The notes below the pieces were generated by a model. It made no database searches, was not told where the DNA came from, and saw only the letters and a program-made list of their open reading frames with translations. Shown in pieces: positions 43,598-61,361 of a DNA stretch of 64,000 nt. Position 1 is the first letter of the stretch, and each line of letters starts with the position of its first letter. The stretch lies in contig JAHFGV010000001.1 of NCBI GenBank assembly GCA_023247255.1, forward strand, positions 22,464 to 86,463. Reading direction: 5' to 3'. The stretch comes from Candidatus Omnitrophota bacterium (GTDB lineage: Bacteria > Omnitrophota > Gorgyraeia > Aquiviventales > Aquiviventaceae). Both the position numbers and the translations under genes were made by a program.

Positions 43598-43633
43598 TGG
43601 GCAACTCCATTCCTGGAAGTAAACCCTACTACT

Positions 43634-44122: not shown

Positions 44123-44156
44123 CCTGAGATTTCACCCCCTGAATTTGATAACCTAC

Positions 44157-44228: not shown

Positions 44229-44487
44229 AAGTAATGACCGCGAGACGCTTCTTCATCTCAGAAATGCCTGTCCCTCGGTGCCTGGCACCTTTCAGGGCGG
44301 CATCTGTCTTACCGCCATTTACCGTCCTCTTTTCTGCTTCCATTCCAACCGCTTTCGTCATCCTAGTTTTTTAACCTTTCGCTGCTCGCATGCTCGGGCT
44401 TGAAGGCCTATGGTTTGCCGTTTCTTCTTTTCGAATTAGTCCTGCTTTAATAACCTCGTATCAGGCAATGAGTTCTGTTGTTGAATG

Positions 44488-45519
44488 TTATTTCTTTGGC
44501 GTGACCGAACCTAGTAATCGCCCAATTGCTTCTGTCGGAAGCTTCTGTGCACCAAGCGTATCTTCATCGTGTGGAAGCAAGCCGGAACTACCAAAAGCCA
44601 CCACTGCTTCCACCAAGTTTGCAAGAATTAAGTCACGCTGTTCAGGAGTTTGTGCTGATACCACGAATGCCTCGATGCTATTTGCAACTCTCTGCCGATG
44701 TTTATTGAGTTGGCTCATGTGGATATGTGCCCTCAACATCCTCATAGTAAAGGTAGTAATTGCCCCAACGGCAGATAAGATTACAATTCTAAGAGCCGTC
44801 TGATAGACGGCGATGTGCCATTCAGATTCTACTGGTAGCTTGATAAAGATAAATGCGATGGCCACTCCGAAGAAAGCGATGATTGCGAACGCACTCAACC
44901 AACCCCATAGCTTTATGTCTCTCGATAGTTCAATCTGAGCTTCCTTGAATTGCCGCTGTGCTTCTTGAACAGAGATTTTAGTCGCTGTCCGTCTTGCTTT
45001 CGTCTCAATTTCCTCGGCAAGTTTCTTGGCTTCGTCTATAGCTTTCCTTGCTTCTTCCTTAAGGGATTGGATAGTTTCTGATGATTCCTTTCTGAGTGAC
45101 TCGACTGTACGCTGGTATTCTTGTCTAATACCTTCATCTTCTAGGAAACCACGCTCTATGACCGCTGCGGCAACGAACGATGGCTCTGTTCGCTTAGCTT
45201 CCTCTAAGAATGTATCAATGTCGGTCAGAAAACTTGTCCTTCGCGCGATATATTGCGAGCTAGCAGAGCCAGCCTGATTCGAGAATTGGCTGTGAATTTG
45301 CTGAAGAACGTTCGTGATCTGATTAATCGGCTCATTGTGAACCTGTGGAGCGTATTGGATTGCTAATCGGCGCAATTTAGAGAGACGCTCCAACCGCGGC
45401 TGAAGCTCCTTTTCGAGAGACTCTTCACCGAGGGATTTCCTAAGAAGCTTTTCCATGTCAACCGAATTTACAGCATCGTCGGCTTTCTTCAAATTATCAA
45501 GGTATTGCTGAGATGCCAT
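44488..45519 (-). CDS. Coiled-coil protein with two adjacent TM helices (candidate membrane effector)
   Basis: ~220 aa charged helical N-terminus, TM1 LWGWLSAFAIIAFFGVAIAFIFI, TM2 IAVYQTALRIVILSAVGAITTF, ~75 aa C-terminus. Confidence 0.6.
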   Translation of the reverse strand: MASQQYLDNLKKADDAVNSVDMEKLLRKSLGEESLEKELQPRLERLSKLRRLAIQYAPQVHNEPINQITNVLQQIHSQFSNQAGSASSQYIARRTSFLTDIDTFLEEAKRTEPSFVAAAVIERGFLEDEGIRQEYQRTVESLRKESSETIQSLKEEARKAIDEAKKLAEEIETKARRTATKISVQEAQRQFKEAQIELSRDIKLWGWLSAFAIIAFFGVAIAFIFIKLPVESEWHIAVYQTALRIVILSAVGAITTFTMRMLRAHIHMSQLNKHRQRVANSIEAFVVSAQTPEQRDLILANLVEAVVAFGSSGLLPHDEDTLGAQKLPTEAIGRLLGSVTPKK

Positions 45520-45585
45520 TTTCTACCTCCTACACGACAACATTACTGTTGCCCTTATACATATTCCCAGTCTCCACCCCACACC

Positions 45586-45918
45586 TTAAGCATTACTTGC
45601 CTCAAAACCCATGACCTTCTCGTCGTCTTTTATCTCAGTACACGGTACCACAATTGAAGCAATAAAACCCCACTTCACCAAAGCAATAGAATCAAACTCT
45701 GTTTCCTGGGGCGGTCTTCCATCTGAGAAGACGATGTGTCTTTTTATTTTTGGGATGTAAACCCAAACACCAAGATCATCGACGCCTCTAATTTGCAAAT
45801 ACTGATTTTGCAAAACAATTCCCTGTTGATCCAAACCCAATTCCTGTGGCAGTTTTACGAGACACACGATAACATTCTTGTTGAGTAAGTCCTTGCCTAT
45901 AAACCCTATTTCAGGCAT
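45586..45918 (-). CDS. Hypothetical protein (110 aa)
   Basis: ORF-track ORF in AT-rich island, no recognisable motif. Confidence 0.45.
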   Translation of the reverse strand: MPEIGFIGKDLLNKNVIVCLVKLPQELGLDQQGIVLQNQYLQIRGVDDLGVWVYIPKIKRHIVFSDGRPPQETEFDSIALVKWGFIASIVVPCTEIKDDEKVMGFEASNA

Positions 45919-45928
45919 GATGGCTCCG

Positions 45929-46135
45929 TTACTTATTTGTTCTCGTTTTTACAAATTCCTCAAGATCCTCGGGCGCAATGCGCCATCTCTTTATCTTAGT
46001 CGCACGAATCTGCTTCAGATTGATGAGCTCACGCACTCTCTCCTCAGTGAGGTCCAGCTTCTCAGCGACCTTCGCCACCGTCAGGTAATTTTTGACATCC
46101 ATAACGCGATCCTCGTTCTCAGTTCTTCGGGACAT
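45929..46135 (-). CDS. Excisionase/AlpA-like HTH DNA-binding protein
   Basis: YLTVAKVAEKLDLTEERVRELINLKQIRATKIKRWRI (HTH_17 / Xis-type). Confidence 0.7.
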   Translation of the reverse strand: MSRRTENEDRVMDVKNYLTVAKVAEKLDLTEERVRELINLKQIRATKIKRWRIAPEDLEEFVKTRTNK

Positions 46136-47420
46136 TAAACACCATGACTGTAAGAATCAATTCTCTGCTGGCATCGCTCGGTTGGTGAAACATGTACTGG
46201 AAGGAAGTCTCATGCTGTTTGACGAGTTCTCTCTTGAAGCACGAATGAGTCTTCACTATCTCGGGGACTTGCGACAAGACGGCAGAGAAATCCTGATTCT
46301 TATTAAACAGAATTACTGCAATCTTCGTATCCCGCCAGCTTGCATATCTCAAGACCTGGTCTATCGCTTCGCTCAAGCTCTTTTGTCCGTGCCAAATTTT
46401 GCATTCCGCGATGAAGACATTTTTGCCTTCATAACGGATCAAAATATCGGTCTTCCCTGAATAGTTGAAGGCTTCACCCGTCGCCAATTCGTAATGGCTG
46501 TTGAGAGGAACCAAGAACTGCCATCTGAGGGATTCCTCGTCCATCTCACGAAACGCTTTGGGGCTTCGCTCCATAACAAGTGCCATCCGGGAGATCAAAT
46601 CCAGAATGTGCCTATACTCCCCTTCTTGGAGGATCGGCTCTCTCGTTACACTACCTTCCTGAATCTTCGGGGGTTCAATCAGAGGTTTTCGCCGAACCAC
46701 AGGAACGGTGTAAGTAGCCGCATCCTGTTCTCTTCGCTTTATAGGGATTCCGAGACCCTCCACTAAGCCTTCGTCCTTCAATATCCTTTCTTTTCTCGCA
46801 ACCAAAAGTCGCCTTGCCTCACCCTCTATGAACTTGTTGTGTTCTGCGGCATCGCGGGCCATAGTCTGTAAGTAGCCCTTGATCTGACCGATATCCTGCT
46901 CCATATCCGTCTTTATTTTGTCCGTGCTCATATCCTGGGGCAGACCCCGATACCGCAAATGTATCTCATTCCCCACCACGTTACCGCGGATCCCGCTTAA
47001 AGAAAAAGAGGACGGGGTGAAATGGAATAATTGTCCATCGCCTTCAAATGGGACAGCTATGGTGACGGAAATACCCTTTACAATATGCGGTTCGTCATCA
47101 TCGATGATCGCGTAATCAACACGCCCCCTCACATCCATGTCAATGTCTTCGGCGGGATGGGCAACCTTGTTGTCATCATGCAATACTGGTGTTTCTAAGG
47201 TATATCTGCCGACCAGATACTTGCACAGTTCTTCTTCGCTAGTTTTCAGCAAGTATTCACGACCCATACGCTGAACCTCGTCTTTCAAGCCTGCTTTGAG
47301 AGACTCCAACAAATTCCGAAACTCTCCCTTTTGGTGGAACAGTAATTCGTTACCTGCCATCTCACTTCGTACCCTTTGGCGTTTATAAAACTGTCCGTGC
47401 CTGCGCATATTCATTTCCAC
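46119..47420 (-). CDS. 433-aa protein with C-terminal PD-(D/E)xK nuclease motif
   Basis: GKTDILIRYEGKNVFIAECKIWHG (D...ExK) near the C-terminus; N-terminal two-thirds unrecognised. Confidence 0.6.
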   Translation of the reverse strand: MEMNMRRHGQFYKRQRVRSEMAGNELLFHQKGEFRNLLESLKAGLKDEVQRMGREYLLKTSEEELCKYLVGRYTLETPVLHDDNKVAHPAEDIDMDVRGRVDYAIIDDDEPHIVKGISVTIAVPFEGDGQLFHFTPSSFSLSGIRGNVVGNEIHLRYRGLPQDMSTDKIKTDMEQDIGQIKGYLQTMARDAAEHNKFIEGEARRLLVARKERILKDEGLVEGLGIPIKRREQDAATYTVPVVRRKPLIEPPKIQEGSVTREPILQEGEYRHILDLISRMALVMERSPKAFREMDEESLRWQFLVPLNSHYELATGEAFNYSGKTDILIRYEGKNVFIAECKIWHGQKSLSEAIDQVLRYASWRDTKIAVILFNKNQDFSAVLSQVPEIVKTHSCFKRELVKQHETSFQYMFHQPSDASRELILTVMVFNVPKN

Positions 47421-47559
47421 ACGATTCCATATTGCTCCATATTCTACTGCCAGCCGAAAGACAAGTCACCTGAAAGCTTGTCAACAGAAGGACAGAATTG
47501 CGTGCGGAAAAAGGCGTGCTCGAAAGAGGGCAATTCACGACGGATTTTTCGTAACCAAC

Positions 47560-47643
47560 TCACTCATAACCGTTCAGCTTCTTCAGCAGCCCCAGCGCCA
47601 TCTCGCGCCAACGGCACATACGGTCAGCCGTAGGTTTGGACAT
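47560..47643 (-). CDS. 27-aa mini-ORF, paralog of 44157-44228
   Basis: MSKPTADRMCRWREMALGLLKKLNGYE. Confidence 0.4.
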   Translation of the reverse strand: MSKPTADRMCRWREMALGLLKKLNGYE

Positions 47644-47651
47644 ATACCGAC

Positions 47652-48053
47652 CTATGCATTTTTGCCTTCCTGGGGAAGCTGTCGGAACACGGCTGCAAGC
47701 TCAGCTTTGCTTATCTTACCCGACGCCACCTTCAACATGGCGTCCTTAAGGTCTCCCGCCGGATCGGTAAGACTGACATCGTTCAGTTCCAGAAAGACCA
47801 ACGCGCAGGCTAACGCCGTCCGCTTGTTGCCATCGACGAACGGGTGATTCTGACAAAGATGATACGCATAGGCAGCGGCCATCTCATAGACGTCCTGGTG
47901 GAGCCATTCACCAGCGAACGAAGCCTCAGGCTGCGCAAGCGCTGATTGGAGCAGGCCCATGTCACGCAATCCGGCCTGGCCTCCGTAGCGTCTGAGTTGG
48001 TCGGCGTGTACTTCAACAACCTCGGCCAGCGTCAGGAATTGCGGCTCGCCCAC
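47652..48053 (-). CDS. doc: Doc (Fic-family) toxin; GTG start assumed
   Basis: HPFVDGNKRTALACALVFL Fic motif; GTG at 48051-48053 sits 8 nt after the antitoxin stop, GGAG upstream. Confidence 0.8.
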   Translation of the reverse strand: MGEPQFLTLAEVVEVHADQLRRYGGQAGLRDMGLLQSALAQPEASFAGEWLHQDVYEMAAAYAYHLCQNHPFVDGNKRTALACALVFLELNDVSLTDPAGDLKDAMLKVASGKISKAELAAVFRQLPQEGKNA

Positions 48054-48060
48054 GGCCAGC

Positions 48061-48288
48061 TTACTCCGCCAATTCCTTGAGCGTCTTGCCGTGGCGCCGA
48101 TTGACGGCCTCCAGGGCAGAACGGAAACGCCGTTCCTGCGTGGCATCCCTCAGGGGCGAAATGATAAGATTTCGGCCATCGGTGGACAACTCAAGCGGAG
48201 TTTTCGTGGTAATGTGGAGCAGTTCCAGCACAGCCTTATCGATGACCAGTGCTGTGCTGTTACCATGTTGCGTCAGATGTTTCACCAT
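48061..48288 (-). CDS. AbrB/MazE-fold antitoxin
   Basis: MVKHLTQHGNSTALVIDKAVLELLHITTKTPLELSTDGRNLIISP looped-hinge helix. Confidence 0.8.
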   Translation of the reverse strand: MVKHLTQHGNSTALVIDKAVLELLHITTKTPLELSTDGRNLIISPLRDATQERRFRSALEAVNRRHGKTLKELAE

Positions 48289-48545
48289 CTGAACCCCCTG
48301 TTTGACTGGTTATACAGTGTACTTACAATGTATCACCTCCATTGCGGCTCGTCAAGTGTCGCCACCTCAGCAGCGGCCAGCACCAGCCGAAATCCTTCCG
48401 CCAGGGCGTGAAACACCTGGCTGGTGTCGTGGATGGTGTCCGGCTCCGGTGCTTCAGAAAGTCCAGGTATTTTCGCACTATGGTCATCCATACGTCTAGA
48501 GGTAGAATTGTTTGGTCATCTTAAAAAATAGAACCGCCACCTCAT

Positions 48546-48770
48546 TTACCGGCAGCCACGGTCAGCATTCCAGGTTTTCCCATTCCGGCAGGAGCAGACG
48601 ACATCCTTTCCCTCGATGCGCTCGGGACGGGAGCAGGCTTCCGCAAAGGCGGTTTCGCAGTTGAGAAAAACCCCTCCGGTTAACTCGCACAGGGATTTAA
48701 ACCTCGCGAGATCGCTCTTCGCCTGACACCCTGCGAATGCAAAAAGCACGATTATGAGGATTCTGAACAC
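48546..48770 (-). CDS. Small Cys-rich lipoprotein (74 aa)
   Basis: Signal peptide plus lipobox FAFAGC, six further Cys. Confidence 0.5.
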   Translation of the reverse strand: MFRILIIVLFAFAGCQAKSDLARFKSLCELTGGVFLNCETAFAEACSRPERIEGKDVVCSCRNGKTWNADRGCR

Positions 48771-48962: not shown

Positions 48963-49955
48963 TTATGGGCTGACACAAAGGCTGCGCACGCGATCGAGGA
49001 GTTGTCTTGCCTTTCCACTCTCGATTGTCTGACGTGCGGACTCCATGCCCTCTTGGATCGTCGCTGCGCGATTGGAAACGTAGATCACACAGCCGGCATT
49101 GACTACGACGATGTCGCGGGCTGGTCCTTCCTTGCCATCCAGAATGTCGCGGGCAATCGCGGCGTTTCTTTCCACAGAACCTCCCTGGATGGCTGGTAGC
49201 AAAACACGTGGAATATCAAAGGCTCGGGTATCGAGCGTGGCGCGCGTGATACGACCGTCTCGGACCTCCAGGGTATCTGTGAGTGCTGTGGTGCTGATCT
49301 CATCCAAACCATCGCGACCATGGACAACCATTCCATGCTGAACACCCAGTCGGCTGATGGCTTCTGCCATCGGCTGCAATAACCGCTCGTCGGAGACTCC
49401 CACCAATTGAAATGCCAGCGCTGCCGGATTCGCCAATGGGCCGATGAGATTGAATAGAGTGCGTATTCCCAGTTCCTTTCGGATACCTGCGACGCCTTTC
49501 ATCGCCGGATGAAAAATCGGGGCAAAACAGAACCCGAATCCCAACGTTTCCACACAGTGGGCCACCTGCTTGGGTGAAGCCGATAGATTAACGCCCATGG
49601 CCTCCAAAACATCGGCACTGCCGCAGCGGCTGGATGCTGCGCGGTTTCCGTGTTTGACGATTCGTACGCCGCTAGCGGCGGCCACCAGCGCAGCAAGTGT
49701 GGAAACGTTCACGGTTTGTTGTTTGTCTCCACCCGTGCCGCAGGTATCACAGAGATTCTGCGTATTTGTCAAGGGCAGGCGCACTGCATGGGCTCGCAGG
49801 ACTTCAACCGCAACAGCTATCTCCTGTGACGTTTCTCCCCGTTTTGCCAGCGTTTGGAGGAAAATCCGCGTGGATTCGGCAGGGTAGCTGCCAGTCATGA
49901 TCTGGGTCATGACCTGGCGCATCGCTTCGGCGGGTAAGGGCTGCTCGAAGTCCAT
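48963..49955 (-). CDS. trpD: Anthranilate phosphoribosyltransferase
   Basis: CDTCGTGGDKQQTVNVSTLAALVAAASG. Confidence 0.95.
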   Translation of the reverse strand: MDFEQPLPAEAMRQVMTQIMTGSYPAESTRIFLQTLAKRGETSQEIAVAVEVLRAHAVRLPLTNTQNLCDTCGTGGDKQQTVNVSTLAALVAAASGVRIVKHGNRAASSRCGSADVLEAMGVNLSASPKQVAHCVETLGFGFCFAPIFHPAMKGVAGIRKELGIRTLFNLIGPLANPAALAFQLVGVSDERLLQPMAEAISRLGVQHGMVVHGRDGLDEISTTALTDTLEVRDGRITRATLDTRAFDIPRVLLPAIQGGSVERNAAIARDILDGKEGPARDIVVVNAGCVIYVSNRAATIQEGMESARQTIESGKARQLLDRVRSLCVSP

Positions 49956-49956: not shown

Positions 49957-50556
49957 CTATCGATGAGAAGGCCGGCGTTTGTGAAAGTCCCTCACCAGGC
50001 GTAGGAAATTCCGCAACAGATCCTTGCCCTGTGTGGTGAGGATGGACTCCGGGTGAAACTGCACGCCATATACAGGCAGATGGCGATGTTGGAGTCCCAT
50101 GATTTCGCGCTGAATCGTCCAGGCCGTAACGCGGAGTGTCTTGGGTAGAGTCTCTCGACGCACGATCAACGAATGATAGCGGGTGGCTTCAAAAGGATTG
50201 GGAAGTTTTCGGAACAGTCCGGTCCGTATGTGATAGATTGCGGAAGTCTTACCGTGCATGGGCCGTCTGGCACGGACCACGTGGCCTCCGAAGACCTCGC
50301 CGATGCATTGGTGGCCCAGGCATACGCCAAGAATAGGGGTGGATGCTGCGAAGGTTTTGATGAGGTCATTAGATATCCCAGCATCGGAAGGGTTGCCTGG
50401 CCCAGGAGAGATGACAATGCTCGACGGTTTGAGTCGCCGGATGCCCTTTAAGGTGATTTGATCGTTGCGCTTGACCACCAGTTCCTCACCCAATTCTCCC
50501 AAGTATTGGACGAGGTTGTAAGTGAACGAGTCGTAATTGTCGATCATGAGGATCAT
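49957..50556 (-). CDS. trpG: Anthranilate synthase component II (glutamine amidotransferase)
   Basis: [12 protein letters not shown] catalytic Cys. Confidence 0.95.
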
Positions 50557-50574: not shown

Positions 50575-50690
50575 ATTTGCGCGTTGGCGCGAGTGTGCAT
50601 GTTAACGTTTCTACCTGTGCAATGGGACAGCTTGAAGCTTGTTAACTCGCGCACTCGCAAACCCACTAACGCGCTAACTCGCCAACACGC
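50575..50690 (-). promoter_or_regulatory. Structured trpE-trpG intergenic element (long imperfect inverted repeat)
   Basis: gcgcgttggcgcgagtgtgcatgttaac ... gttaactcgcgcactcgc ... ctcgccaacacgc. Confidence 0.35.
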
Positions 50691-52186
50691 TAACCCTTTC
50701 GTCGTTCCGCCAACTCAATGGCTTGGAGCATGCCTTTGGCCTTGTTGATCGTCTCTTGATATTCCCGATCGGGTTGGGAATCCGCGACGATACCGGCACC
50801 TGCTTGAATATAAGCGTGACGATCTTTAACCAGGATGGTGCGGATCGTGATGCACGCATCGAGGTTTCCGGAGAAGCTGAAATAGCCGACGGCTCCGGCG
50901 TAAATGCCCCGATCTTGCCGCTCCAACTGGGCAATAATTTCCATAGCCCTGACTTTAGGAGCACCGGTGACGGTTCCTGCCGGGAACGTGGCACGCAAGG
51001 CGTCGAAAGCTGTTTTTCCTGAACGCAGCTTACCTGTCACCCCGCTGACTAGATGCAGAACATGCGAGTATTTCTCAACGATCATCAGCTCCGGGGTGCG
51101 AACCGATCCTACCTGGGCCACTCGACCCAGATCGTTGCGTCCCAAATCCACGAGCATGAGATGTTCGGCGCGTTCCTTGGGACTTGTGCGCAACTGATGA
51201 ATCAGGCGCTCATCCTCACGTTCACTCTTACCCCTGGGTCGAGTGCCGGCAATGGGCCGGGTTTCCAGAAGACCTTCTTCGCAGCGGATGAGCATTTCCG
51301 GAGAAGATCCGACCAGAGACAGGTTTCCTAGACGTAAAAAGAACATATAGGGAGACGGATTGAGCGATCGCAGGGAACGGTAAACTTTCAAGGGTTCGCA
51401 ATCCAAGCGTCTCTCAAAACGTTGAGAAAGAACGACCTGGATGATCTCACCTGAGCGGATCGCTTGCTTGGCCTGGTGGACCATGCTCACAAACTCTTCA
51501 CGACTCATGCTGGACTGAAAGGGCTTCGAGACAGAGGGAATACTTTGTTTTCTCCGGGTATCTGGAAGGCTTCGGGAAAGTTTCCGGGCCATGGCGTGTA
51601 TGGTTTCAACCGCCTTTCGGTAGGCAAGCCGCGGCGCATGCGTCTGGGTTTGGGCGTTGGCCACCAACAATAGCTTATGTTGGGCATGGTCGAAAATGGC
51701 CATTGTCTGGGTCAGCATCAGCATGATGTCCGGCAGGCGCAAGTCATTTTCTCGATGGGTAGGCAGACGTTCCAAGAATCGCACGACGTTATATCCGAGA
51801 TAGCCGACCCATCCTCCGCAAAACCGCGGCAGTCCCTCAACAGGCACAAAACGAATGGGTGCCGTCAGGCGTTCGATTTCCTTGAGGGGATCCGGCACAT
51901 TTTCAAAACGCCGCGTTTGGCGAGTGCCCTGCCCGAATGTTGTGAGATCGACGTTTCTGCCGCTGCTGGTGAAAAGCATCTGCGGGCTGCTACCCAGGAA
52001 TGAAAAACGCGCGACTTTTTCTGTTCCCTCTACCGATTCGAGCAGATAGCTGAGCCGGCCGTCGTCCAGTTTCATAAACGCGCTCACAGGCGTTTCCAAA
52101 TCAGCCAGCATCGTCCCGTAGACAGGAATAACATTTCCCTGTTTTGCTAAACGGATGAACTCAACTTCTGATGGTTGAATCTTCAT
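50690..52186 (-). CDS. trpE: Anthranilate synthase component I
   Basis: LSYLLESVEG N-terminus, chorismate-binding C-terminus GAVGYFSFSG. Confidence 0.95.
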   Translation of the reverse strand: MKIQPSEVEFIRLAKQGNVIPVYGTMLADLETPVSAFMKLDDGRLSYLLESVEGTEKVARFSFLGSSPQMLFTSSGRNVDLTTFGQGTRQTRRFENVPDPLKEIERLTAPIRFVPVEGLPRFCGGWVGYLGYNVVRFLERLPTHRENDLRLPDIMLMLTQTMAIFDHAQHKLLLVANAQTQTHAPRLAYRKAVETIHAMARKLSRSLPDTRRKQSIPSVSKPFQSSMSREEFVSMVHQAKQAIRSGEIIQVVLSQRFERRLDCEPLKVYRSLRSLNPSPYMFFLRLGNLSLVGSSPEMLIRCEEGLLETRPIAGTRPRGKSEREDERLIHQLRTSPKERAEHLMLVDLGRNDLGRVAQVGSVRTPELMIVEKYSHVLHLVSGVTGKLRSGKTAFDALRATFPAGTVTGAPKVRAMEIIAQLERQDRGIYAGAVGYFSFSGNLDACITIRTILVKDRHAYIQAGAGIVADSQPDREYQETINKAKGMLQAIELAERRKG

Positions 52187-52192
52187 AACAGG

Positions 52193-52837
52193 TCACAGGT
52201 TCTTTGAATTAAACGGAAACCATGTTTGTAAAAGTGTGCGGAGGCGCACAAACGATTCATCCTGGCACCGATCCAAACTGACCCTTTCGGCAAGCTGTCG
52301 ATACAGAGAAGATGAGCGTGGAATACTGACTTGTTTCAATGCTGTTTCAAGGGCCCTCCGTGGTTCTTGAGGTTTTCTGTCAGACCCTTTCCATAATTCC
52401 TGATGTTGTAGCCAATTTCGTAATGTGGGTGTTCTGCCTTTCCATCCTAAGACGGCATCTACCTCGCTTGAATCACTCCATACCCACACTTCCAATTCAG
52501 GGTTGATAACGAGCACTTCCGCACGCTCATCCCACCCATTATTAGCGAGCCTAGCTTTTAGATTAGCTTCGATTTCCTGGACACCCGAAGTTTCTTGGCC
52601 ACAGCCTTTAGCATCAAATACCACCAGTGCTCGCTTAGCCTTTTTAAAGTAGAAACGCAATACCTCAGGGGCTTCCTTAAAGCATCCAGGGTCTCGGTGG
52701 AAATTTACTAGAATCTCGTATCGAATGGACCGAATACCCAGGCTTCTTTGACGTGTGGAGATGAGTCCTTCGAAAACTTCTCGTTCATCAGTTCCTGGAA
52801 CAAGCAAGATAAGATCGAGCGGAGATTCAGCATTCAT
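52193..52837 (-). CDS. DUF4276-like (TOPRIM-like) protein, partner of the upstream ABC/AAA_21 ATPase
   Basis: N-terminal LILLVPGTDEREVFEGLI resembles the DUF4276/TOPRIM start (VEGxTE); 4-nt overlap with the ATPase stop. Confidence 0.55.
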   Translation of the reverse strand: MNAESPLDLILLVPGTDEREVFEGLISTRQRSLGIRSIRYEILVNFHRDPGCFKEAPEVLRFYFKKAKRALVVFDAKGCGQETSGVQEIEANLKARLANNGWDERAEVLVINPELEVWVWSDSSEVDAVLGWKGRTPTLRNWLQHQELWKGSDRKPQEPRRALETALKQVSIPRSSSLYRQLAERVSLDRCQDESFVRLRTLLQTWFPFNSKNL

Positions 52838-54093
52838 CCGAGAACGCCTGTTGCAAATAGCGTCCCAAGATCAATGCCTCTTCGCCAATCTCGTAACATC
52901 GGATGTTCGCTTCCACGGACGATATCCGTAGCACCTCCGCTGCTACGAGCGAAACAAAGAATTTGCTCAGGCTCAGCAAGGGAGAGGATCACGGGTGAGT
53001 GGCTGGCGCACAGAATTTGGTTCTCATAAGTCGATGAGAGTGACTGGAATACTGCTTCAACGGCTCTGGGATGAATGCCATTCTCAGGTTCCTCAATGAG
53101 ATAAATGTGCCCTGCTTGATTGAGATAGGCCAACAGGGTGAGAGCGAGCAGTCGCAGTGTCCCATCGGATATCATCCAAGATGGCGCACTCAGTCCCGAC
53201 TGATAGGATAGGCGAAGATAGCGATGTTTGTCCTCTGGCCGTTCTACCGTATCGACCGTGTTCAAATCCGTAAGTGCCGTGCGCACGTGTCCAATCCAGC
53301 GTTCAAAACGTTCTGGGGATTTCCGTAGCTCCTCGATTACTAACGGTAGATTGGATCCATCAGGCTGAAATTCTTGAGGGCTTCCAGGAGGAGTAGGACG
53401 TCGCATCGCCTGGCTATTGAGAGTCAGACTCTGGATGCCTTCTATAAGTAGATGTTTAACCCAGATAGCCACAGGGAAACGATTTTCGTCCTCAGGCAAG
53501 TTAGCGAGCGCTGAGCGCTGGGGTCCCAATCTAAAGGGGTTGTTCCAATCTGTCGTTTCGGAAAAGAAGTAATCGTTACCGGACTCAGATTTTTTTGTCA
53601 CAACTTTTTTCCATCCTGAAGGGGTATGTTTTCCTTCGGGAAGGACAACAGGTGTGGTTATCACCTGAAGGGATGGAAAAAGTTCACGTTGGTTCTCTTT
53701 CTTTTCTTCCTCTTTAGGAGCAGGTTTTAACCAGAGCGTTTCGCTAAGGATGGAAAGCACATTCTTAACATCTAAACCTATAGCCATTTCATACCGTGCG
53801 CGTTCATACCCATTGCGTGGAAGTTGCCGCCGTCGTTCTTCAGGAATCTCCATTTCAACAGCGATTTCAAATTCTTTATTCTGTCCCATCCAGATCAGAT
53901 CTGACAGGTTGGGTGAGCGAGAATGGACCGCTTCCATGAGTCCATCTTTAAGCACATCACCGAGTAGACGGATGACATCCAGAAAAGTCGATTTTCCACT
54001 GGCATTGGGTCCTACAAGAACATGGAAGCTCTCCATTTGCTGGCGTACACGGTGTAAACAGCGATATCCCTCCACGTCAATCAGTCGGATCAT
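52834..54093 (-). CDS. AAA_21 / ABC-type ATPase (OLD/Gabija-GajA/AbiL-like), start at [10 protein letters not shown]
   Basis: Walker A VGPNASGKSTFLD, Walker B/D-loop IYLIEEPENGIHP, CASHSP; ATGA overlap with the hisI stop (tcat at 54090-54093). Confidence 0.8.
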   Translation of the reverse strand: MIRLIDVEGYRCLHRVRQQMESFHVLVGPNASGKSTFLDVIRLLGDVLKDGLMEAVHSRSPNLSDLIWMGQNKEFEIAVEMEIPEERRRQLPRNGYERARYEMAIGLDVKNVLSILSETLWLKPAPKEEEKKENQRELFPSLQVITTPVVLPEGKHTPSGWKKVVTKKSESGNDYFFSETTDWNNPFRLGPQRSALANLPEDENRFPVAIWVKHLLIEGIQSLTLNSQAMRRPTPPGSPQEFQPDGSNLPLVIEELRKSPERFERWIGHVRTALTDLNTVDTVERPEDKHRYLRLSYQSGLSAPSWMISDGTLRLLALTLLAYLNQAGHIYLIEEPENGIHPRAVEAVFQSLSSTYENQILCASHSPVILSLAEPEQILCFARSSGGATDIVRGSEHPMLRDWRRGIDLGTLFATGVLG

Positions 54094-54524
54094 TTTGAAA
54101 CTCCTTTGTACACTTTCTTTGGATCGAAAACCTTTCGACTCTGGACTTGTAATCTTCCTAAATGGGAGAGAATCCGAAAATAGCAACTGAAGTATCCGGC
54201 GTGGCAGGCGGCGACGCGCTGGCGGACGAAAAACACAAGGGATTTGCCTTCACAGTCAACGGCTATACTTTGGATGAACTGAATGTGTCCAGAGGTCTCT
54301 CCTTTACGCATGAGTGTCTGTTGGGAGCGTCGGAAAAGATAAACGGTTCCTGTCTGTAGGCTCTTACGCAAAGCTTCACGGTTGAGGTAGCACAGGGTCA
54401 GAACTTGCTTGCTCTTGGCATCTTGGATGATTGTTGGAATCAGTTCCTCATCGGAGAACTTCAAAACCGAAACGAGTTGGCGGAAACCGGCTAAGGCTTT
54501 GCCGCGCTGAAGGTTTGTCTTCAT
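54090..54524 (-). CDS. hisI: Phosphoribosyl-AMP cyclohydrolase
   Basis: [23 protein letters not shown]...[11 protein letters not shown]. Confidence 0.9.
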
Positions 54525-55309
54525 ATCCGAACCGTCAGTCCTTTAGAGGCAATATAACGTTTCACTTCCGCAATCGTAAGCTCTCCAAAATGAAACAAAG
54601 AGGCGGCCAAGGCGGCGTCGGCCTTGCCCTGTGTGAGTGCTTTTACGAAGTGCTCCGGATTACCGGCACCGCCGGATGCGATCACAGGAATCGAGACCGC
54701 TTCAGAGACGGCTTTCGTCAATGCCACGTCATAGCCCATTTTCGTGCCGTCTCGATCCATACTGGTGAGGAGAATCTCACCCGCTCCCATTTCTTGCGCT
54801 TCCTTCGCCCATTCCACAGCGTCCTTCCCTGTAGGATTCCTTCCTCCGTGGGTGTAGACTTTCCATTCGGATTGCGGATTGTGAATTGTGGGTTGTGGAT
54901 CTGAATGACGGCGCTTGGCATCGATGGCTACGACGATACACTGAGCGCCGAATCTTTCAGACGCTTCGCGGATAAAAATGGGATTCTCAAGCGCGCTTGT
55001 GTTGATTGAGACCTTATCGGCTCCCGCTTTCAACAGAGCGCGGATGTCCTCCAGCGTGCGAATTCCTCCACCCACCGTCAGGGGCATGAAGGCAACGGAT
55101 GCGGTTTTCGCCACTACGTCGATGAGAATCGGCCGCTGCTCAAAACTCGCGGTGATGTCGAGAAAGACAAGCTCATCGGCCCCCGCATCGTTGTAAGCCT
55201 TGGCCGCATCGACTGGGTCTCCAGCATCCTTGAGGCTCACGAACCGCACGCCTTTGATGATGCGTCCGCGATCTACATCGAGACAAGGAATGATGCGTTT
55301 AGCTAGCAT
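54521..55309 (-). CDS. hisF: Imidazole glycerol phosphate synthase cyclase subunit, with a short in-frame family-2 half-repeat
   Basis: [16 protein letters not shown]...; extra [14 protein letters not shown] is encoded by cggattgcggattgtgaattgtgggttgtgg at 54866-54907. Confidence 0.93.
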
Positions 55310-55328: not shown

Positions 55329-56054
55329 CTAAGTCCCAAGTGCTTGGATGGCTTGCTTGAGATCAATCTGTTTCTCATACAACGCCTTGCCGACGATGGC
55401 TCCCATTAAGCCACGTTCTTCCAAATTCTTGAGCTGCTGCAGATCTTTCAACGATGCGATTCCTCCAGATGCAATCAGCTGTTTGGGGCCGACGTCCAAG
55501 ATTTCTTCCAGCAGGGAAAGATTAGGCCCTTGGAGCATTCCGTCGCGGCTGACATCCGTGCAAATCAGCGTCTCGACTCCTAGCATGACGACACTACGTG
55601 CCAGAGCCGATGGTTTCAGGGTGGTTGAACGCATCCAACCTCTGGCAACGACCTGCCCGGCCCTTGCGTCAATGGCGACGGCGATCTTGGAGCCGTAACG
55701 GTCAGCAGCTTCCTGAACGAAAACCGGATCCTCACAGGCTTTGGTGCCCAGAACCACTCGGGCAGCCCCTGAGGCAAAAGCCTGGGTGAGGGCTTGCTTA
55801 GTGCGGATTCCCCCGCTCAATTCGACCGAAGCATTGCATGAACGGATGATCCGCTCAGCCAGGGGAAGATTGACGTATGTCCCCTCGAAGGCGCCGTTAA
55901 GATCCACAACGTGCAACCAGCAAGCGCCTTGAGCTACCCACTGCTTAGCGATGGCTATCGGATCTTTGGAATAGACGACGACTTGATCCCGTTTGCCTTG
56001 GGAGAGCCGCACCACTTGTCCATCGAGCAAGTCAATCGCTGGAATAATAATCAT
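55329..56054 (-). CDS. hisA: ProFAR isomerase
   Basis: MIIIPAIDLLDGQVVRL. Confidence 0.93.
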   Translation of the reverse strand: MIIIPAIDLLDGQVVRLSQGKRDQVVVYSKDPIAIAKQWVAQGACWLHVVDLNGAFEGTYVNLPLAERIIRSCNASVELSGGIRTKQALTQAFASGAARVVLGTKACEDPVFVQEAADRYGSKIAVAIDARAGQVVARGWMRSTTLKPSALARSVVMLGVETLICTDVSRDGMLQGPNLSLLEEILDVGPKQLIASGGIASLKDLQQLKNLEERGLMGAIVGKALYEKQIDLKQAIQALGT

Positions 56055-56692
56055 AGAGAAATGAAATTTCTGAGAAGCTGCAATCCCAGTGTCTGACTTT
56101 TTTCAGGATGAAACTGCGTGGCGTAGAGATTTTCCCGCCACACCATCGATGCAAACCGGACGCCATAATCTGTTTCCAGTATGACTACCGATCGGTCGGC
56201 TGGTTCAGGATAATAGGAATGGACGAAGTACACAAAACTTCCATCCGGTATCCCCTCCAGCAGTGGACAGGTCTTTTGCTTTTGCTGATTGCTGTAAATC
56301 TGATTCCATCCCATGTGGGGAATTTTAAGGGGCGAGGGGCGCGAGGCGAGGGGCGAGGTTTTTGCACGGAAGCGTTTAACAACGCCTCTCAAGACTCCGA
56401 GGCCAGATGAGGCTTCTCCTTCTTCACTGCGTTCAAAAAGCAATTGCAACCCAAGACAGATGCCTAAGTAAGGAACGCCACGCGTGATCGCTGATGTAAT
56501 CGGTCCAATCAGCCCACGTGAGGATAACTCCTGCATGGCTGCTGGAAAAGCGCCCACCCCTGGCAGAATGAGTTTGTCGGCCTTCGCCACTTCAACCGGA
56601 TTGCTTGAGACACGGACAGACGCCCCGAGTGCCTCCAACGCTTTGGAGACGCTGCGCAAATTTCCCATACCGTAATCGATGATGACAATCAT
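56051..56692 (-). CDS. hisH: Imidazole glycerol phosphate synthase glutaminase subunit, with in-frame G-rich insert
   Basis: MIVIIDYGMGNLRSV, GICLGLQLL; insert AKTSPLASRPSPL corresponds to ggggcgaggggcgcgaggcgaggggcgagg at 56321-56365. Confidence 0.9.
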   Translation of the reverse strand: MIVIIDYGMGNLRSVSKALEALGASVRVSSNPVEVAKADKLILPGVGAFPAAMQELSSRGLIGPITSAITRGVPYLGICLGLQLLFERSEEGEASSGLGVLRGVVKRFRAKTSPLASRPSPLKIPHMGWNQIYSNQQKQKTCPLLEGIPDGSFVYFVHSYYPEPADRSVVILETDYGVRFASMVWRENLYATQFHPEKSQTLGLQLLRNFISL

Positions 56693-56700
56693 ATACGGGG

Positions 56701-56745
56701 CAGGGGGCAAGGGGCGCGGGGCATGGGAGCCTGTCCCCTGTCTCG
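56701..56745 (+). repeat. G-quadruplex-type motif in the hisB-hisH spacer, related to the hisH insert
   Basis: GGGGGcaaGGGGcgcGGGGcatGGG (four G-runs, loops 3 nt). Confidence 0.5.
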
Positions 56746-56759: not shown

Positions 56760-57362
56760 TCATAGGTGGCCCTTCGAGGAGGGGATTCCTTTTACCCGCG
56801 GGTTGCGCGTTACAGCTTGGCAAAGGGCGCGTCCCAGGGCTTTGAAGACCGCCTCAAGGACATGGTGGAAGTCGCTGCCAGAGAGGACGTCAATGTGAAT
56901 CGTTAGTTTCGCGGCCCTTGCGAAGGACTCGAGGAAATGCTCGGCATCCCCCCATTGATAAGAAGTGCTGGATGAAAGGCCTCCTTTGGAACGACTGCTG
57001 CGCGCATCCCTGAAGGCTACCTTGGGCCTTCCGGAGATGTCTAGAACCACACGCGCTAGGGCTTCGTCCATGGGAACGTAAGCACAACCAAAACGCTCAA
57101 TCCCGACACGTTTTCCCAACGTTTGGTCAAGTGCTTCTCCCAGAACAAGTCCAATATCTTCATTCGTGTGGTGCAAGTCGATATCCAAATCACCCTGCGC
57201 TTGGATGTTCAGATCCAACAATCCGTGGACGCCCAGAAGGGTGAGCATGTGATTCAGGAATGGGATGCCTGTTTTGACAGAAGCCTTCCCGGCTCCATCT
57301 AAGTTGAGTGTCACACGAATGTTCGTTTCTTTACTCTTGCGTATTATGTTCGCTTGTCTCAT
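56760..57362 (-). CDS. hisB: Imidazoleglycerol-phosphate dehydratase
   Basis: RKSKETNIRVTLNLDG...HHTNEDIGLVLG. Confidence 0.93.
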   Translation of the reverse strand: MRQANIIRKSKETNIRVTLNLDGAGKASVKTGIPFLNHMLTLLGVHGLLDLNIQAQGDLDIDLHHTNEDIGLVLGEALDQTLGKRVGIERFGCAYVPMDEALARVVLDISGRPKVAFRDARSSRSKGGLSSSTSYQWGDAEHFLESFARAAKLTIHIDVLSGSDFHHVLEAVFKALGRALCQAVTRNPRVKGIPSSKGHL

Positions 57363-57420: not shown

Positions 57421-58641
57421 TTACGTTAGCCTGACCTTCACCGCATCGAAATGGCGCGGAAGGCCTTCGATGGTGGTTAACTGCTCCAGAGGCTCCCGGA
57501 ACCGCTCCAAGGCCTTTTTCGTATAGCTGATCACATGGGTACGTCGGATAAAGTCATCGAGACCCAATCCTGAGAATGCCCGGGCAGATCCTCCGGTCGG
57601 CAACACATGGCTGGGGCCAGCGATGTAGTCTCCCACAGTCACGGGTGAATAAGATCCCAGGAATATGGCGCCTGCGTGCGTGATCCGTTTGGCCAGCTTC
57701 TGCGGCGAACGCACCATGATTTCAAGATGCTCAGGAGCTAGGCTATTGGCGACGGCAATCGCTTCCTGTTGATTCTTGACGACGACGCAATAACCGCCGG
57801 GTATTTGTTTTCTCGCCATTTTGGCGAGTGCTTTGGAGGTTGTGATCAGAAATCCGAGTCCGCCGGCATGTTCTGTTTCTCCCAGAAGATCGGCCAACAC
57901 ATATTCCGGATTCGCGTGGCGGTCGGCAATGACTCCGATCTCAGAAGGACCGGCAATGGTATCGACGTCTACAAACCCAAAGACCTGGCGTTTGGCTTCC
58001 GCCACAAAAGCATTGCCGGGTCCGACGATCTTGTCCACCTTGGGGACGGTCTTCGTTCCAAAAGCAAAGGCTGCGATCGCTTGAGCGCCTCCCATTTTAT
58101 AGATTTCATCCACGCCCAGAAGACTCGCTACTGCCAAGATGTGCGGGTCGACGCTTCCATCCTTACGCGGAGGGGTCGCCAAGATGATCCGCTTGACGCC
58201 TGCTCTCTGGGCAGGAATCACCGTCATGTAAACGGTGGAAACCAGACTGGCGGTGCCACCCGGGATGTAAATGCCCACGCGCTCAATGGGATCGAATTTC
58301 TCACCCAGAAGCACCCCGTCTCCATCAACCAGCCGCACCGGCTTTAAGCGTGAACGTCCGTAAAAAACCTGAACGTTTTGTATCGCGCTCTTCAGACGCA
58401 GGGCAAATTTAGGATCCAAATGTTGAAAAGCTCCGGAAATCTCCGCCTCAGTGACTCGAAGTTGCTTAGAACTGAGCTTGACTTTGTCGAAGCGTCGGGT
58501 GTAGCGCAAGAGTGCTTCATCGCCATGTTTGTAGATAGAGTCAACGATGTCCCGGACCCGCTGTTCAATCCGTTGCTTGCGCACAAGCTGGCGCGTACAG
58601 AGTCGTTGCCATTCCTTGCTTGTCGTTGAGATGATCTTCAT
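57421..58641 (-). CDS. hisD: Histidinol dehydrogenase
   Basis: 406 aa, GPGNAFVAEAKRQV, zinc-binding motifs. Confidence 0.93.
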   Translation of the reverse strand: MKIISTTSKEWQRLCTRQLVRKQRIEQRVRDIVDSIYKHGDEALLRYTRRFDKVKLSSKQLRVTEAEISGAFQHLDPKFALRLKSAIQNVQVFYGRSRLKPVRLVDGDGVLLGEKFDPIERVGIYIPGGTASLVSTVYMTVIPAQRAGVKRIILATPPRKDGSVDPHILAVASLLGVDEIYKMGGAQAIAAFAFGTKTVPKVDKIVGPGNAFVAEAKRQVFGFVDVDTIAGPSEIGVIADRHANPEYVLADLLGETEHAGGLGFLITTSKALAKMARKQIPGGYCVVVKNQQEAIAVANSLAPEHLEIMVRSPQKLAKRITHAGAIFLGSYSPVTVGDYIAGPSHVLPTGGSARAFSGLGLDDFIRRTHVISYTKKALERFREPLEQLTTIEGLPRHFDAVKVRLT

Positions 58642-61361
58642 GTTGATTCCAACGCTTGTCGGATGAGTTCTTCGGCCCGTTTGAGGGCATCAGGGACCTT
58701 CGACACCTCGGTTCCTCCACCCTGTGCGAAGTCGGGACGTCCGCCTCCTTTTCCTTGTGTCAGGGCGGCTACTTGCTTCAAAAGCTCACCGGCATGCACG
58801 CGCCCAGCTAAACCTTTGGTCGTTGCACTAAGCCAAGATACCTGCTTGGGAGATTCTATTGCCGCCAATACCACGATGCCTTCTGTGTTTAGCGAGCGTT
58901 TGATGGCATCTGCCAAGACGGCCAAGATTTCACGGTCCGCTTGATCGATTTTTGCCGCAATCAGGCAGACGCCGTTAATGGATCTAGCTTCAGCCACGAG
59001 CCTGGGGGCGCGCACCTGAGCGAGCTCTGTCTGAAGGTTCTTGCGCTGTTTCTTGAGGTTTTTGAGCTGCTCCAGAAGCTCTTCAATGCCTTGAACGAGT
59101 TCCTGTGGAGACCTCCCCAATCGCTGCGCGGCTTGCGTCAACAACGACCGGTTTTGATGCTGGCGCTGCGATGCCGCTTCTCCGACTTCGGCTTCCACGC
59201 GCCGGGTTCCGGCGGCGATGGAACTCTCTGAGGTGATAACGAACGAACCGACGTATCCCGTGTGCAATAAATGGGTGCCGCCGCAGAGTTCTTTGGAGTA
59301 ATCGCCGATGGTAACCACGCGCACGTTTGCGCCGTATTTTTCACCGAAGAGCGCTAAGGCCCCGGTTCGCTTGGCTTGTTCCAGACTCATTGGGTTTGCG
59401 CAAACCGCATCGGCGAGCCGAATGCGGCTGTTGATTAGTTCTTCCACCTGGTAGCGCTGTTCTTCATGCAGACCTTTGAGGGATGAGAAGTCAAAGCGCA
59501 CCCGCTCGATCTCGACGTAAGAACCCGCTTGCACCGTCTCAGGGCCTAAAACCTTACGCAGTGCCCAGTGAAGCAAGTGCGCGGCCGTGTGACTCCGTGC
59601 AACCTTCAGACGTCTTTCGGAATCGACGGATGCGCGCGCCGGATTCTGCACGGCAATGCTGCCTGTGCGGATCGTGGCCTGGTGCAGCAACACGTCATCG
59701 ACCCATGTCGTCTTTTGTATTTCAGCCATGCCTCGAGGGGTCTCCAGCACTCCAGAATCTCCGATCTGTCCTCCCGCCTCGCCGTAAAAGGGGGAGTGAT
59801 TCAAGACAATACCCACCTGCTCTCCGGCGTGAGCTTCGTTGATCCACTGGTTTCCATTCCATATCCCACGGATGATAGCCTCGGCCTTGAGGTTTTCATA
59901 GCCGATGAACTGAGCGTCTTTCGAGGGAAGATCGGGAATCATCGAACGCACAGATAGCTCGTCGCTGACGAACACCCCCCCGCTAAACTGACTCGCCGCG
60001 CGTGAACGTTCTTGTTGTACGGCCAAAGCCTTTTCAAACGTCGCTTGATCGACGGTAAGGCCATGCTCATGAGCGATATCGATTGTTATCTCAAGCGGAA
60101 ACCCGTGAGTGTCATAGAGCTTGAATGCCTCTTCCCCTGAGAGGGTTTTCTGTCGTAACCGCTTAAGTTCTTGAATGAGATTTTGCAAACGGTTCTCCCC
60201 ACCTTCCAAGGTTTCCGCGAACTGCTTCTCTTCTTGATACCAGGCTTGATAGATGGACTCGTCATTTTTTAATAAATCCTCATGCGGTGAGCCTTTCATA
60301 GTATCAATAACTGCTTGAATCAAATCCCATCTGGCAGTCCGCGTCTTGTCCCGTAGTGCTGCAGAACCCTCCGGCAATCCGAGTTTTCGCGCGAAGCGAT
60401 GAGCTCTTCGGATGAGCATTCGAAGAACATAACCACGCTGTCCATTTGATGGTGAGAGTCTTTCGGCCAGCAGAAACACGATGGCACGAAAGTGATCGGC
60501 CAAGGCCCACTCCAGAATCACCTTTTGATCGACATCTGCAGAGGATACAGTTAGTCTGGGTCGAATTTCTCCAATGATAGGTTCAAATAAATCGGTTTCG
60601 TAATCACTGAGGATTCTCCCTTGTGCCAGTCCTTGGACTACAGCGGTCAATCGCTCCAGGCCCATTCCGGTATCGATGTTGGGTTTGGGCAGGGGCTTCA
60701 GGCTGCCGTCCGGCTGGCGATCGTATTGAGTGAAAACGAGGTTCCAGACCTCCACCGATTTCGGACCTTGGACTATGGCCTCAGGATCATAATAAATCTC
60801 CGAGCAAGGCCCGCAAGGGCCGTTGGGTCCTTCTTTGGGGGCGTTGGCCGGCCAGAAATTGTCCGCCTGGCCAAAACGACGGATCCGATTCTCGGGAATC
60901 CCAAGTTTGCGCCAGAGCTTGAAGGCTTCCTCATCCTCTTCGTAGATACTGACCCACAGTTTTTCCGCAGAAAGACTGAGGCATAAATCCCGAACAGGGC
61001 TGGACTGCTTGCCGGCATAGTCGAGAGTGCCGGTCAGAAATTCCCAGGCCCATTGGATGGCCTCTGCTTTGAAATAGTCCCCGAATGAAAAGTTGCCGAG
61101 CATTTCAAAGAACGAATGGTGGCTGGGAGTCTTGCCTACTCTTTCCAGATCCCCGGTCCGAAGGCATTTCTGGCAGGAGACGGCGCGCTTCAAGTCAGTA
61201 CGTTTTCCGAGGAAGTAGTCTTTAAACTGGTTCATCCCTGCGGACGTGAACAAGACGGTGGGATCTCCACTAGGAATGAGGGAATCACTTTCTTTTCGAA
61301 TGTGTCCGTAGGCCTCGAAGAACTTGAGGAAGCGCTCACGCAGATCGTTACTCTTGATCAT
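58638..61361 (-). CDS. alaS: Alanine--tRNA ligase
   Basis: FTSAGMNQFKDYFLGK; 907 aa. Confidence 0.96.
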   Translation of the reverse strand: MIKSNDLRERFLKFFEAYGHIRKESDSLIPSGDPTVLFTSAGMNQFKDYFLGKRTDLKRAVSCQKCLRTGDLERVGKTPSHHSFFEMLGNFSFGDYFKAEAIQWAWEFLTGTLDYAGKQSSPVRDLCLSLSAEKLWVSIYEEDEEAFKLWRKLGIPENRIRRFGQADNFWPANAPKEGPNGPCGPCSEIYYDPEAIVQGPKSVEVWNLVFTQYDRQPDGSLKPLPKPNIDTGMGLERLTAVVQGLAQGRILSDYETDLFEPIIGEIRPRLTVSSADVDQKVILEWALADHFRAIVFLLAERLSPSNGQRGYVLRMLIRRAHRFARKLGLPEGSAALRDKTRTARWDLIQAVIDTMKGSPHEDLLKNDESIYQAWYQEEKQFAETLEGGENRLQNLIQELKRLRQKTLSGEEAFKLYDTHGFPLEITIDIAHEHGLTVDQATFEKALAVQQERSRAASQFSGGVFVSDELSVRSMIPDLPSKDAQFIGYENLKAEAIIRGIWNGNQWINEAHAGEQVGIVLNHSPFYGEAGGQIGDSGVLETPRGMAEIQKTTWVDDVLLHQATIRTGSIAVQNPARASVDSERRLKVARSHTAAHLLHWALRKVLGPETVQAGSYVEIERVRFDFSSLKGLHEEQRYQVEELINSRIRLADAVCANPMSLEQAKRTGALALFGEKYGANVRVVTIGDYSKELCGGTHLLHTGYVGSFVITSESSIAAGTRRVEAEVGEAASQRQHQNRSLLTQAAQRLGRSPQELVQGIEELLEQLKNLKKQRKNLQTELAQVRAPRLVAEARSINGVCLIAAKIDQADREILAVLADAIKRSLNTEGIVVLAAIESPKQVSWLSATTKGLAGRVHAGELLKQVAALTQGKGGGRPDFAQGGGTEVSKVPDALKRAEELIRQALEST

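Follow-up and report, generated by a model that had tools for sequence, protein, structure and literature searches.

Defence systems that combine an ABC ATPase with a TOPRIM protein have been described, and "MADS3-4" is already listed among them (PMC11464382). One setting of this pair is MADS of Pseudomonas aeruginosa SMC4386, an 8-gene system in which mad3 and mad4 are each needed for defence and cells die on deletion of mad5 unless they also lack mad2 or mad3 (10.1101/2023.03.30.534895); this rescue of mad5 loss by mad3 deletion places MAD3 in a toxic arm of the system. Another is the Hma system, from which the same two genes, HEC-01A for an ABC ATPase and then HEC-01B for a small TOPRIM-like protein, were named in PADLOC as HEC-01, Hma-embedded candidate 01; a single HEC-01 pair has been tested, in E. 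coli, where it protected against none of the phages used (10.1101/2024.01.29.577857). Here we describe a pair of this family from a Candidatus Omnitrophota bacterium (contig JAHFGV010000001.1), lying between hisI and trpE in a 64,000-nucleotide stretch of DNA that we call the window and to which coordinates refer unless another locus is named. In contrast to the Hma setting of HEC-01, this pair stands within a his-trp operon, with translational coupling predicted.

Family membership of the two proteins

The first gene of the pair (52834-54093, minus strand) encodes a 419-aa ABC ATPase of the MAD3/HEC-01A type, and the second (52193-52837, minus strand) a 214-aa protein of the MAD4/HEC-01B type. 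The ATPase matches the NCBIfam model antiphage_MADS3 over its full length at 517.9 bits (curated cut-off 420), PADLOC HEC-01A at 3.6e-44 and mad3 at 6.9e-37, and Pfam AAA_21 at 6.5e-33, with AAA_15 also found; the second protein likewise exceeds the cut-off of antiphage_MADS4 (212.8 bits against 160) and matches PADLOC mad4 at 3.7e-7 and HEC-01B at 2.8e-5. These profiles assign the pair, a solitary one, to the MAD3/MAD4 (HEC-01) family that PADLOC and NCBIfam already recognise by name. Homologues are abundant: the ATPase has more than 7000 at E <= 1e-20, clustered at 90% identity, and the profile of its partner finds 1749 clusters formed at 50% identity. The initial annotation had described a split module of OLD/Gabija-GajA/AbiL type; its OLD-like, ATPase-nuclease, defence-type character is borne out by the PADLOC and NCBIfam matches, but the family is MAD3/MAD4, that is HEC-01, and not Gabija or AbiL.

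Alignment of the ATPase with 35 homologues identified four conserved regions on the minus strand. The Walker A motif or P-loop, GPNASGKST, spans residues 28-36 (53986-54012), with G28, N30, S32, G33, K34 and S35 invariant; SDGTLR at residues 309-314 (53152-53169), with S309, D310, G311, L313 and R314 invariant, is signature-like, and we take it to be the ABC signature motif. The Walker B and D-loop region, IYLIEEPENGIHP, covers residues 330-342 (53068-53106; E334, E335, P336, E337, N338, G339, H341 and P342 invariant), and the H-loop region, CASHSP, residues 362-367 (52993-53010; A363, H365, S366 and P367 invariant). The ATPase motifs quoted in the initial annotation are thus all present, although LILLVPGTDEREVFEG, given there as the start of the second protein, begins at its residue 9 and not at residue 1. 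An AlphaFold model of the ATPase (pLDDT 84.8) compares most closely with the heads of SMC and Rad50 (17.4-18.6), the Retron Ec83 ATPase (18.0) and Septu PtuA (17.5), followed by AriA (15.7), Eco8 OLD (15.5), Thermus OLD (13.8) and GajA (13.7), which places the modelled protein, an ABC ATPase lacking a coiled coil, in the SMC/Rad50/OLD clade.

The partner has no Pfam family at E <= 0.1. In 40 homologues R29, D49, D75, G80, P113, E114, W118, W120, S123, K155, P156 and P159 are invariant, and the acidic residues among them, D49 (52691-52693), D75 (52613-52615) and E114 (52496-52498), all within 52496-52693 on the minus strand, each stand just past a predicted beta-strand of the model (strands 2, 3 and 4: E40-44, E67-75 and E106-111; pLDDT 94.3). 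We regard D49, D75 and E114 as a candidate metal-binding site, placed where a TOPRIM-type site would be. As a caveat on the fold, generic alpha/beta domains such as Piwi MID reach scores of up to 8.7 against the model; Foldseek with the MAD4 model returned nothing at E <= 1e-3, and the sequence profile of the protein gave a chance match only against the PDB, with no solved relative. The partner is a TOPRIM protein in the two published accounts of the family (10.1101/2024.01.29.577857; PMC11464382), and the model is consistent with a small, OLD-type TOPRIM-like fold.

The second protein had also been labelled DUF4276 (PF14103), and this label fails: the protein has no match at the gathering score and none at E < 0.1, and just four of the 40 family members reach DUF4276, at best with an E-value of 2.1e-5. 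An hhalign comparison of the 40-sequence family profile with one DUF4276 protein gave a probability of 0.7%, an uninformative figure as the template was a single sequence. The MAD4 family borders on DUF4276 and does not fall within it. DUF4276 proteins, too, are about 200 aa long and come after an AAA_21 ATPase, the same type of pairing. The two types, DUF4276 and MAD4, stand side by side in one metagenome island (L006, 900-14250), where a GmrSD-type gene, a pair of AAA_21 with DUF4276 and a DUF1156 methylase gene are joined by a series of further ATPase and MAD4-like genes.

Other known systems share parts of this architecture. PARIS, with the ABC ATPase AriA and the DUF4435 TOPRIM nuclease AriB (PMC11464382), has the same split two-gene arrangement of ATPase and TOPRIM protein, and offers a plausible model for trigger sensing and nuclease release by a solitary pair. 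Membership in PARIS (OLD class 4) was rejected: the pair has no DUF4435 match, and the resemblance is structural only, the PADLOC AriA matches of the ATPase being to a generic model of AAA_21 length (7.9e-34) and to a weak N-terminal model. PARIS is, moreover, typically carried by phages and satellites, whereas the family of the window pair was not found in phage and viral collections. In OLD and Gabija GajA the ATPase and TOPRIM parts are fused, unlike the separate proteins here, and the PADLOC Old and GajA profiles match the C-terminal half of the ATPase weakly, at 1e-13 to 1e-15. Gabija (OLD class 2) was rejected on the split proteins, on hisI and trpE as the neighbours and on GajA profiles that match only residues ~309-394, at ~1e-13; there is no match to Pfam TOPRIM_OLD, and no GajB/UvrD-type helicase adjoins the pair. 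AbiL was rejected as well, the AbiLi profile covering the ATPase only in part (1.6e-21) and the second protein matching neither AbiLii nor RloB.

We compared the pair with a genuine MADS operon on a Piscinibacter plasmid (L093), in which MAD1-MAD8 all exceed their NCBIfam cut-offs; only 6 plasmid records had matched in our plasmid search, one of which gave this operon. Its mad3 and mad4 have the same order and 4-nt overlap as the window pair, and the window proteins, although full-length matches above the NCBIfam MAD3 and MAD4 cut-offs, are 35% and 37% identical to their true MADS counterparts. Searching the 64-kb window with all eight MADS proteins by tblastn recovered only the pair: mad1, mad2 and mad5-mad8 are absent, including the MAD2 methyltransferase and the MAD5 specificity subunit, and MAD6, MAD7 and MAD8 gave no match at E <= 1e-3. 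Because the MacSyFinder model of the MADS authors treats MAD6, MAD7 and MAD8 as mandatory and MAD3-4 as accessory, the window pair is not MADS. A tblastn search of the window with the Hma methylase, ATPase and accessory proteins found nothing beyond the pair, and amino-methyltransferase motif IV, [DNS]PP[YFWH], occurs in no window open reading frame (ORF) of at least 100 aa, a crude test. We conclude that the pair is neither a MADS nor an Hma system in cis. The NCBIfam names do not imply a methylation system, since the Hma-embedded pair of L011 (8748-10639) scores 508 and 236 bits against the MAD3 and MAD4 models (NF047739 and NF047734), above the cut-offs. These "equivalog" models catch Hma-embedded and solitary pairs as well as MADS, and the resulting automatic labels of "methylation-associated" will fall on loci without any methylation system.

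Insertion between hisI and trpE

The pair belongs to a single tight run of genes, every named one on the minus strand, as read from the ORF list and the sequence. Directly 5' lies hisI (phosphoribosyl-AMP cyclohydrolase; 54090-54524), the final his gene, assigned from its ORF and from Pfam PRA-CH precomputed on identical contigs; directly 3' lies trpE (anthranilate synthase component I; 50690-52186; ORF and precomputed Pfam Chorismate_bind), the first trp gene after the insertion. The hisI/ATPase junction reads ...AAAGGAGTTTCAAAATGATC, in which the ATPase ATG and the hisI TGA (54090-54092) overlap as ATGA; the 3' end of hisI holds a putative Shine-Dalgarno-like element, AAGGAG (54101-54106, minus strand), 7 nt 5' of the ATPase ATG, read directly at the junction and conserved in a related lineage (L005). 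The ATPase and second gene meet at ...CTCGGATGAATG, with a 4-nt overlap (ATGA at 52834-52837), and the second gene and trpE at CTGTGACCTGTTATGAAG, where the spacer from the MAD4 stop to the trpE ATG is 6 nt (52187-52192, minus strand), too short for a terminator or promoter. The sequence therefore confirms the layout that the initial annotation had proposed, a two-gene module between hisI and trpE whose ATPase ATG overlaps the hisI stop and whose genes overlap by 4 nt. Such 4-nt overlaps are the native style of this operon, found also at alaS/hisD, hisH/hisA and hisF/hisI. For the ATPase, a start at TTG 54186 in the mechanical ORF list was rejected, because all 35 aligned homologues start at the methionine of MIR...; the start is ATG 54093, and M1 is nearly invariant across these homologues. 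Promoter and terminator consensus scans gave counts at the level of shuffled sequence and nothing at the junctions, and across the whole 64-kb window Rfam returned no family at the gathering score, with no known leader or riboswitch seen for the operon.

Relatives retain the hisI-trpE neighbourhood and lack the pair. The closest trpE relatives in species-representative genomes are 48-54% identical, Omnitrophota first, and 597 relatives were confirmed by tblastn. The alaS-hisDBHAFI array, whole or in part, with trpE directly after hisI, occurs in metagenome-assembled genomes (MAGs) of Omnitrophota, in two of Planctomycetota and in one of Poribacteria, where the hisI-trpE part is on a short contig; gaps between the two genes range from 1 to about 150 nt and none holds the pair. 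In a Verrucomicrobiota MAG hisF-hisI lies ~590 nt 5' of trpE, also with no pair (compared loci: L013-L017, L021, L045, L049, L019 and L088). Relatives with hisI-trpE and no pair therefore rule out a conserved his/trp accessory, a role that the initial annotation had named, beside a second protein with no TOPRIM or DUF4276 likeness, as counting against its reading, and neither objection holds in full; the pair was absent from every other hisI-trpE junction examined. Separately, the Omnitrophota loci have no trpG or trpD within 10 kb after trpE.

The pair also differs from its surroundings in composition and affinity. G+C content at third codon positions (GC3) is 0.44 and 0.40 in the two genes versus 0.53-0.63 in the flanking his and trp genes, with the same contrast in L005. 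With L005 set aside, the ATPase shares 66-71% identity with proteins of other organisms, those named by source being from Latescibacteria, Planctomycetes and Phycisphaerales; this is far above the housekeeping likeness to any genome found (best trpE 54%), and fits horizontal transfer. In its closest relative from outside the lineage (71% identity), the C-terminus of an Hma-type helicase overlaps the ATPase, and the L011 pair, 54% and 43% identical to the window pair, is itself part of an Hma system, with the DUF1156 methylase on one side and the DUF499 ATPase on the other. An Hma-embedded ancestor of the pair is plausible. The pair has no flanking direct repeat of 18 nt or more, and no integrase, transposase or recombinase as a neighbour.

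Four contigs carry identical proteins, and beyond them one related lineage, L005, has the same arrangement and the same junction sequences. Between L005 and the window, identity is 87-88% for hisI (a fragment in L005), 88% for the ATPase, 77% for its partner and 72-78% for trpE, trpG and trpD (trpE 76%); the dN/dS values of the ATPase (0.13) and the partner (0.19) resemble those of hisI (0.15) and trpD (0.19). The insertion is therefore older than the split of the two lineages, and both genes, which their many homologues also mark as more than chance ORFs, evolve under purifying selection. Synonymous divergence between the two lineages is uneven along the operon, with dS of 0.53 for hisI, 0.53 for the ATPase and 0.77 for the partner, versus 2.9 for trpE, saturation for trpG and 1.0 for trpD; the lower dS of the hisI-pair segment could reflect recombinational exchange of the cassette with its hisI flank, or differences in codon usage. 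On synteny, composition and affinity, we conclude that the pair is a lineage-specific, horizontally acquired insertion at the tight hisI-trpE junction of an ancestral alaS-hisDBHAFI-trpE supraoperon.

Contexts of the family and possible modes of action

To place the window pair we used 80 metagenome loci found with the partner's profile. The ATPase gene is directly 5' of the MAD4-like gene in every one of these with enough sequence. Some pairs occupy Hma contexts (L011, L098, L099, L132, L095, L166 and L178); others neighbour a type I hsdR gene (L144) or are found in a type III restriction-modification context (L165), beside an Eco57I-like methylase (L159) or in the multi-pair island with GmrSD and DUF1156 (L006). 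About half of the characterised contexts are solitary pairs among housekeeping genes alone, often on the same strand as ordinary flanking genes and at short gaps from them: carB and valS (L114 and L127), pdxJ and nnrD (L169), cytochrome bc and ccmE genes (L008), secA (L010), HhH-GPD and DinB genes (L109), and nadC, for quinolinate phosphoribosyltransferase (L176, 7001-9782; Phycisphaerales bacterium CP070827.1). In this last case the partner stop overlaps the nadC start by 4 nt, and the ATPase is 66% identical to that of the window. Placement among core genes thus recurs across the family, and the his-trp case is a tight example but not a singular one; the initial annotation, right in substance, overstated the setting as unusual. 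Among phages, a tblastn search of 50,697 records with the ATPase gave no match, and a scan of IMG/VR that rests on a single peptide pattern confirmed no relative.

We favour, with moderate confidence, the reading that this is a solitary, horizontally acquired MAD3/MAD4 pair, inserted at hisI-trpE, whose ATPase controls a TOPRIM nuclease in response to an infection cue. The pair has no intergenic space of its own, with two ATGA overlaps and 6 nt to trpE, so it would almost certainly be transcribed together with the his and trp genes, by read-through from the his genes, and translated probably by coupling; the layout is observed and expression is predicted from it. By analogy with related systems, the ATPase would dimerise on ATP and act as sensor and switch for the bound TOPRIM protein, which on an infection cue would cut nucleic acid in a metal-dependent manner, either DNA as in OLD/Gabija or tRNA as in PARIS AriB. 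The surroundings hold no methyltransferase, specificity subunit, kinase or Hma partner, so the pair would have to act without methylation-based self-recognition in cis; self would most likely be spared by activation only on infection, as expected of a trigger-sensing, possibly abortive module. The nuclease model is consistent with MADS genetics, where defence requires mad3 and mad4, and cells survive without mad5 only if mad2 or mad3 is missing too. From likeness to these systems, an anti-phage activity of the pair would be expected.

Several points weigh against this reading. The main weakness is that the sole HEC-01 pair tested gave no phage protection in E. coli (10.1101/2024.01.29.577857). 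The canonical TOPRIM glutamate after strand 1 has no fixed column among the 40 homologues of the second protein. The characterised settings, MADS, Hma and restriction-modification, are methylation-based, so a solitary copy may miss a partner that it needs; and co-transcription and translational coupling are deduced from gene spacing alone. The pair could instead serve as the effector arm for a methylation-dependent system whose methyltransferase, specificity subunit, helicase or kinase genes lie at other sites in the genome, restricting unmethylated DNA in trans as MADS or Hma would. Both proteins exceed the "equivalog" cut-offs for MAD3 and MAD4, family members sit inside MADS (L093), Hma and type III restriction-modification loci (L165) or by type I and Eco57I-type genes (L144 and L159), and MADS MAD3 is genetically tied to the methylation module. 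We consider such action in trans unlikely, given that no methyltransferase, Hma or MADS partner was found in 64 kb, that about half of the characterised contexts are solitary, that the NCBIfam models fail to separate MADS-embedded from other pairs (the Hma pair reaching 508 and 236 bits), and that the window ATPase is just 35% identical to a true MADS MAD3. The lack in the window of every partner gene of Hma and MADS would also fit an inert remnant of a broken system carried along in the operon, yet this is very improbable for a pair with both frames intact and all ATPase motifs and family-invariant residues kept, with dN/dS of 0.13-0.19 at a divergence where trpE is 76% identical, with a junction architecture conserved in two lineages, and with many other solitary pairs in existence.

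A further explanation dispenses with immunity altogether: the pair may be a domesticated factor for nucleic-acid maintenance or quality control, or a selfish cassette that escapes silencing and easy loss by residing in essential operons. In its favour, pairs of the family repeatedly lie on the same strand as the core genes around them (hisI/trpE in the window and L005, carB/valS, pdxJ/nnrD, cytochrome bc/ccmE, secA and nadC). Also in its favour are the failure to find the family in phage and viral collections, the HEC-01 pair that gave no defence when tested, dN/dS values similar to those of housekeeping neighbours, and the lack of any recombinase or flanking direct repeat of at least 18 nt that would explain mobility. 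Against it stand a patchy distribution, in which the pair is missing from all other hisI-trpE junctions examined, and the foreign composition of the two genes; identities of 66-70% to proteins named from other phyla, against 54% for the best trpE, fit transfer, ties of the family to restriction-modification and Hma systems are strong, and toxin-antitoxin (TA) and defence-type genes gather at neighbouring junctions of the same operon. We give a non-immune role little credence beside an infection-cued nuclease.

Other cargo of the supraoperon and implications

On the 5' side of the pair, the minus-strand run comprises alaS (58638-61361), hisD (57421-58641), hisB (56760-57362), hisH (56051-56710), hisA (55329-56054) and hisF (54521-55309), ahead of hisI; on the 3' side, trpE is followed by trpG (49957-50556) and trpD (48963-49955), also on the minus strand. 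A second insertion of ~6.5 kb (42680-48770, minus strand) with foreign-looking genes lies between trpD and trpC (41657-42490). Within it are a 74-aa ORF, a Fic/Doc toxin with its PhD/MazE-type antitoxin, a 433-aa protein without a Pfam family that matches the PADLOC candidate PDC-S54 (3e-140), an HTH_17 protein, a 343-aa membrane protein with weak likeness to LeoBC, a weak PD-(D/E)XK protein and a TIR_2/ThsB-like protein; from its predicted gene content it is in effect a small defence island within a biosynthetic operon. An 89-nt direct repeat, 75% identical between its copies (44144-44232 and 47547-47635), brackets the segment with PDC-S54, HTH_17 and the 343-aa protein, and may mark cassette boundaries. 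In L005 a HicA toxin gene and a 73-aa upstream ORF lie between the MAD4-type gene and trpE (L005 2410-2846), and a 347-aa Fic protein follows trpD (L005 6082-7125). Since L005 has different cargo at the same places, three junctions of the supraoperon are occupied by TA or defence-type genes that differ from one relative to the other, which suggests that the his-trp junctions behave like variable hotspots. Elsewhere in the window, two copies of a ~73-nt dispersed repeat (34325-34397 and 34451-34523; 96% identical, 126 nt apart) lie in the gap 5' of a YchF-like GTPase gene, with a third related copy 23 kb away (11011-11052); Rfam gave no match in any part of the window.

The MAD3/MAD4 family is large and named in PADLOC and NCBIfam, and the window locus is a clean natural case of the pair alone, in a notable if not unique setting. 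A pair standing alone, under purifying selection in two lineages and predicted to be co-expressed with essential genes, argues for function without Hma or MADS partners. Together with the cassettes at other junctions, three in one biosynthetic supraoperon, it provides a small example of TA and defence-type genes outside classical islands. A functional role of the operon embedding may exist, and the evidence for it is circumstantial; we would regard it as a long shot that solitary MAD3-MAD4 pairs are autonomous modules repeatedly wired into core biosynthetic operons (hisI-trpE, nadC, carB-valS and pdxJ), with the his-trp junctions as a hotspot for defence genes in this lineage. If this were so, the his-trp supraoperon would offer three insertion sites with different cargo in two relatives, and the dosage of the pair would follow signals of amino-acid or cofactor starvation, tying a nuclease-based immune or nucleic-acid surveillance response to the metabolic state of the cell; in an alternative form of the same idea, essential operons would serve as a refuge in which such modules are protected from silencing and loss.

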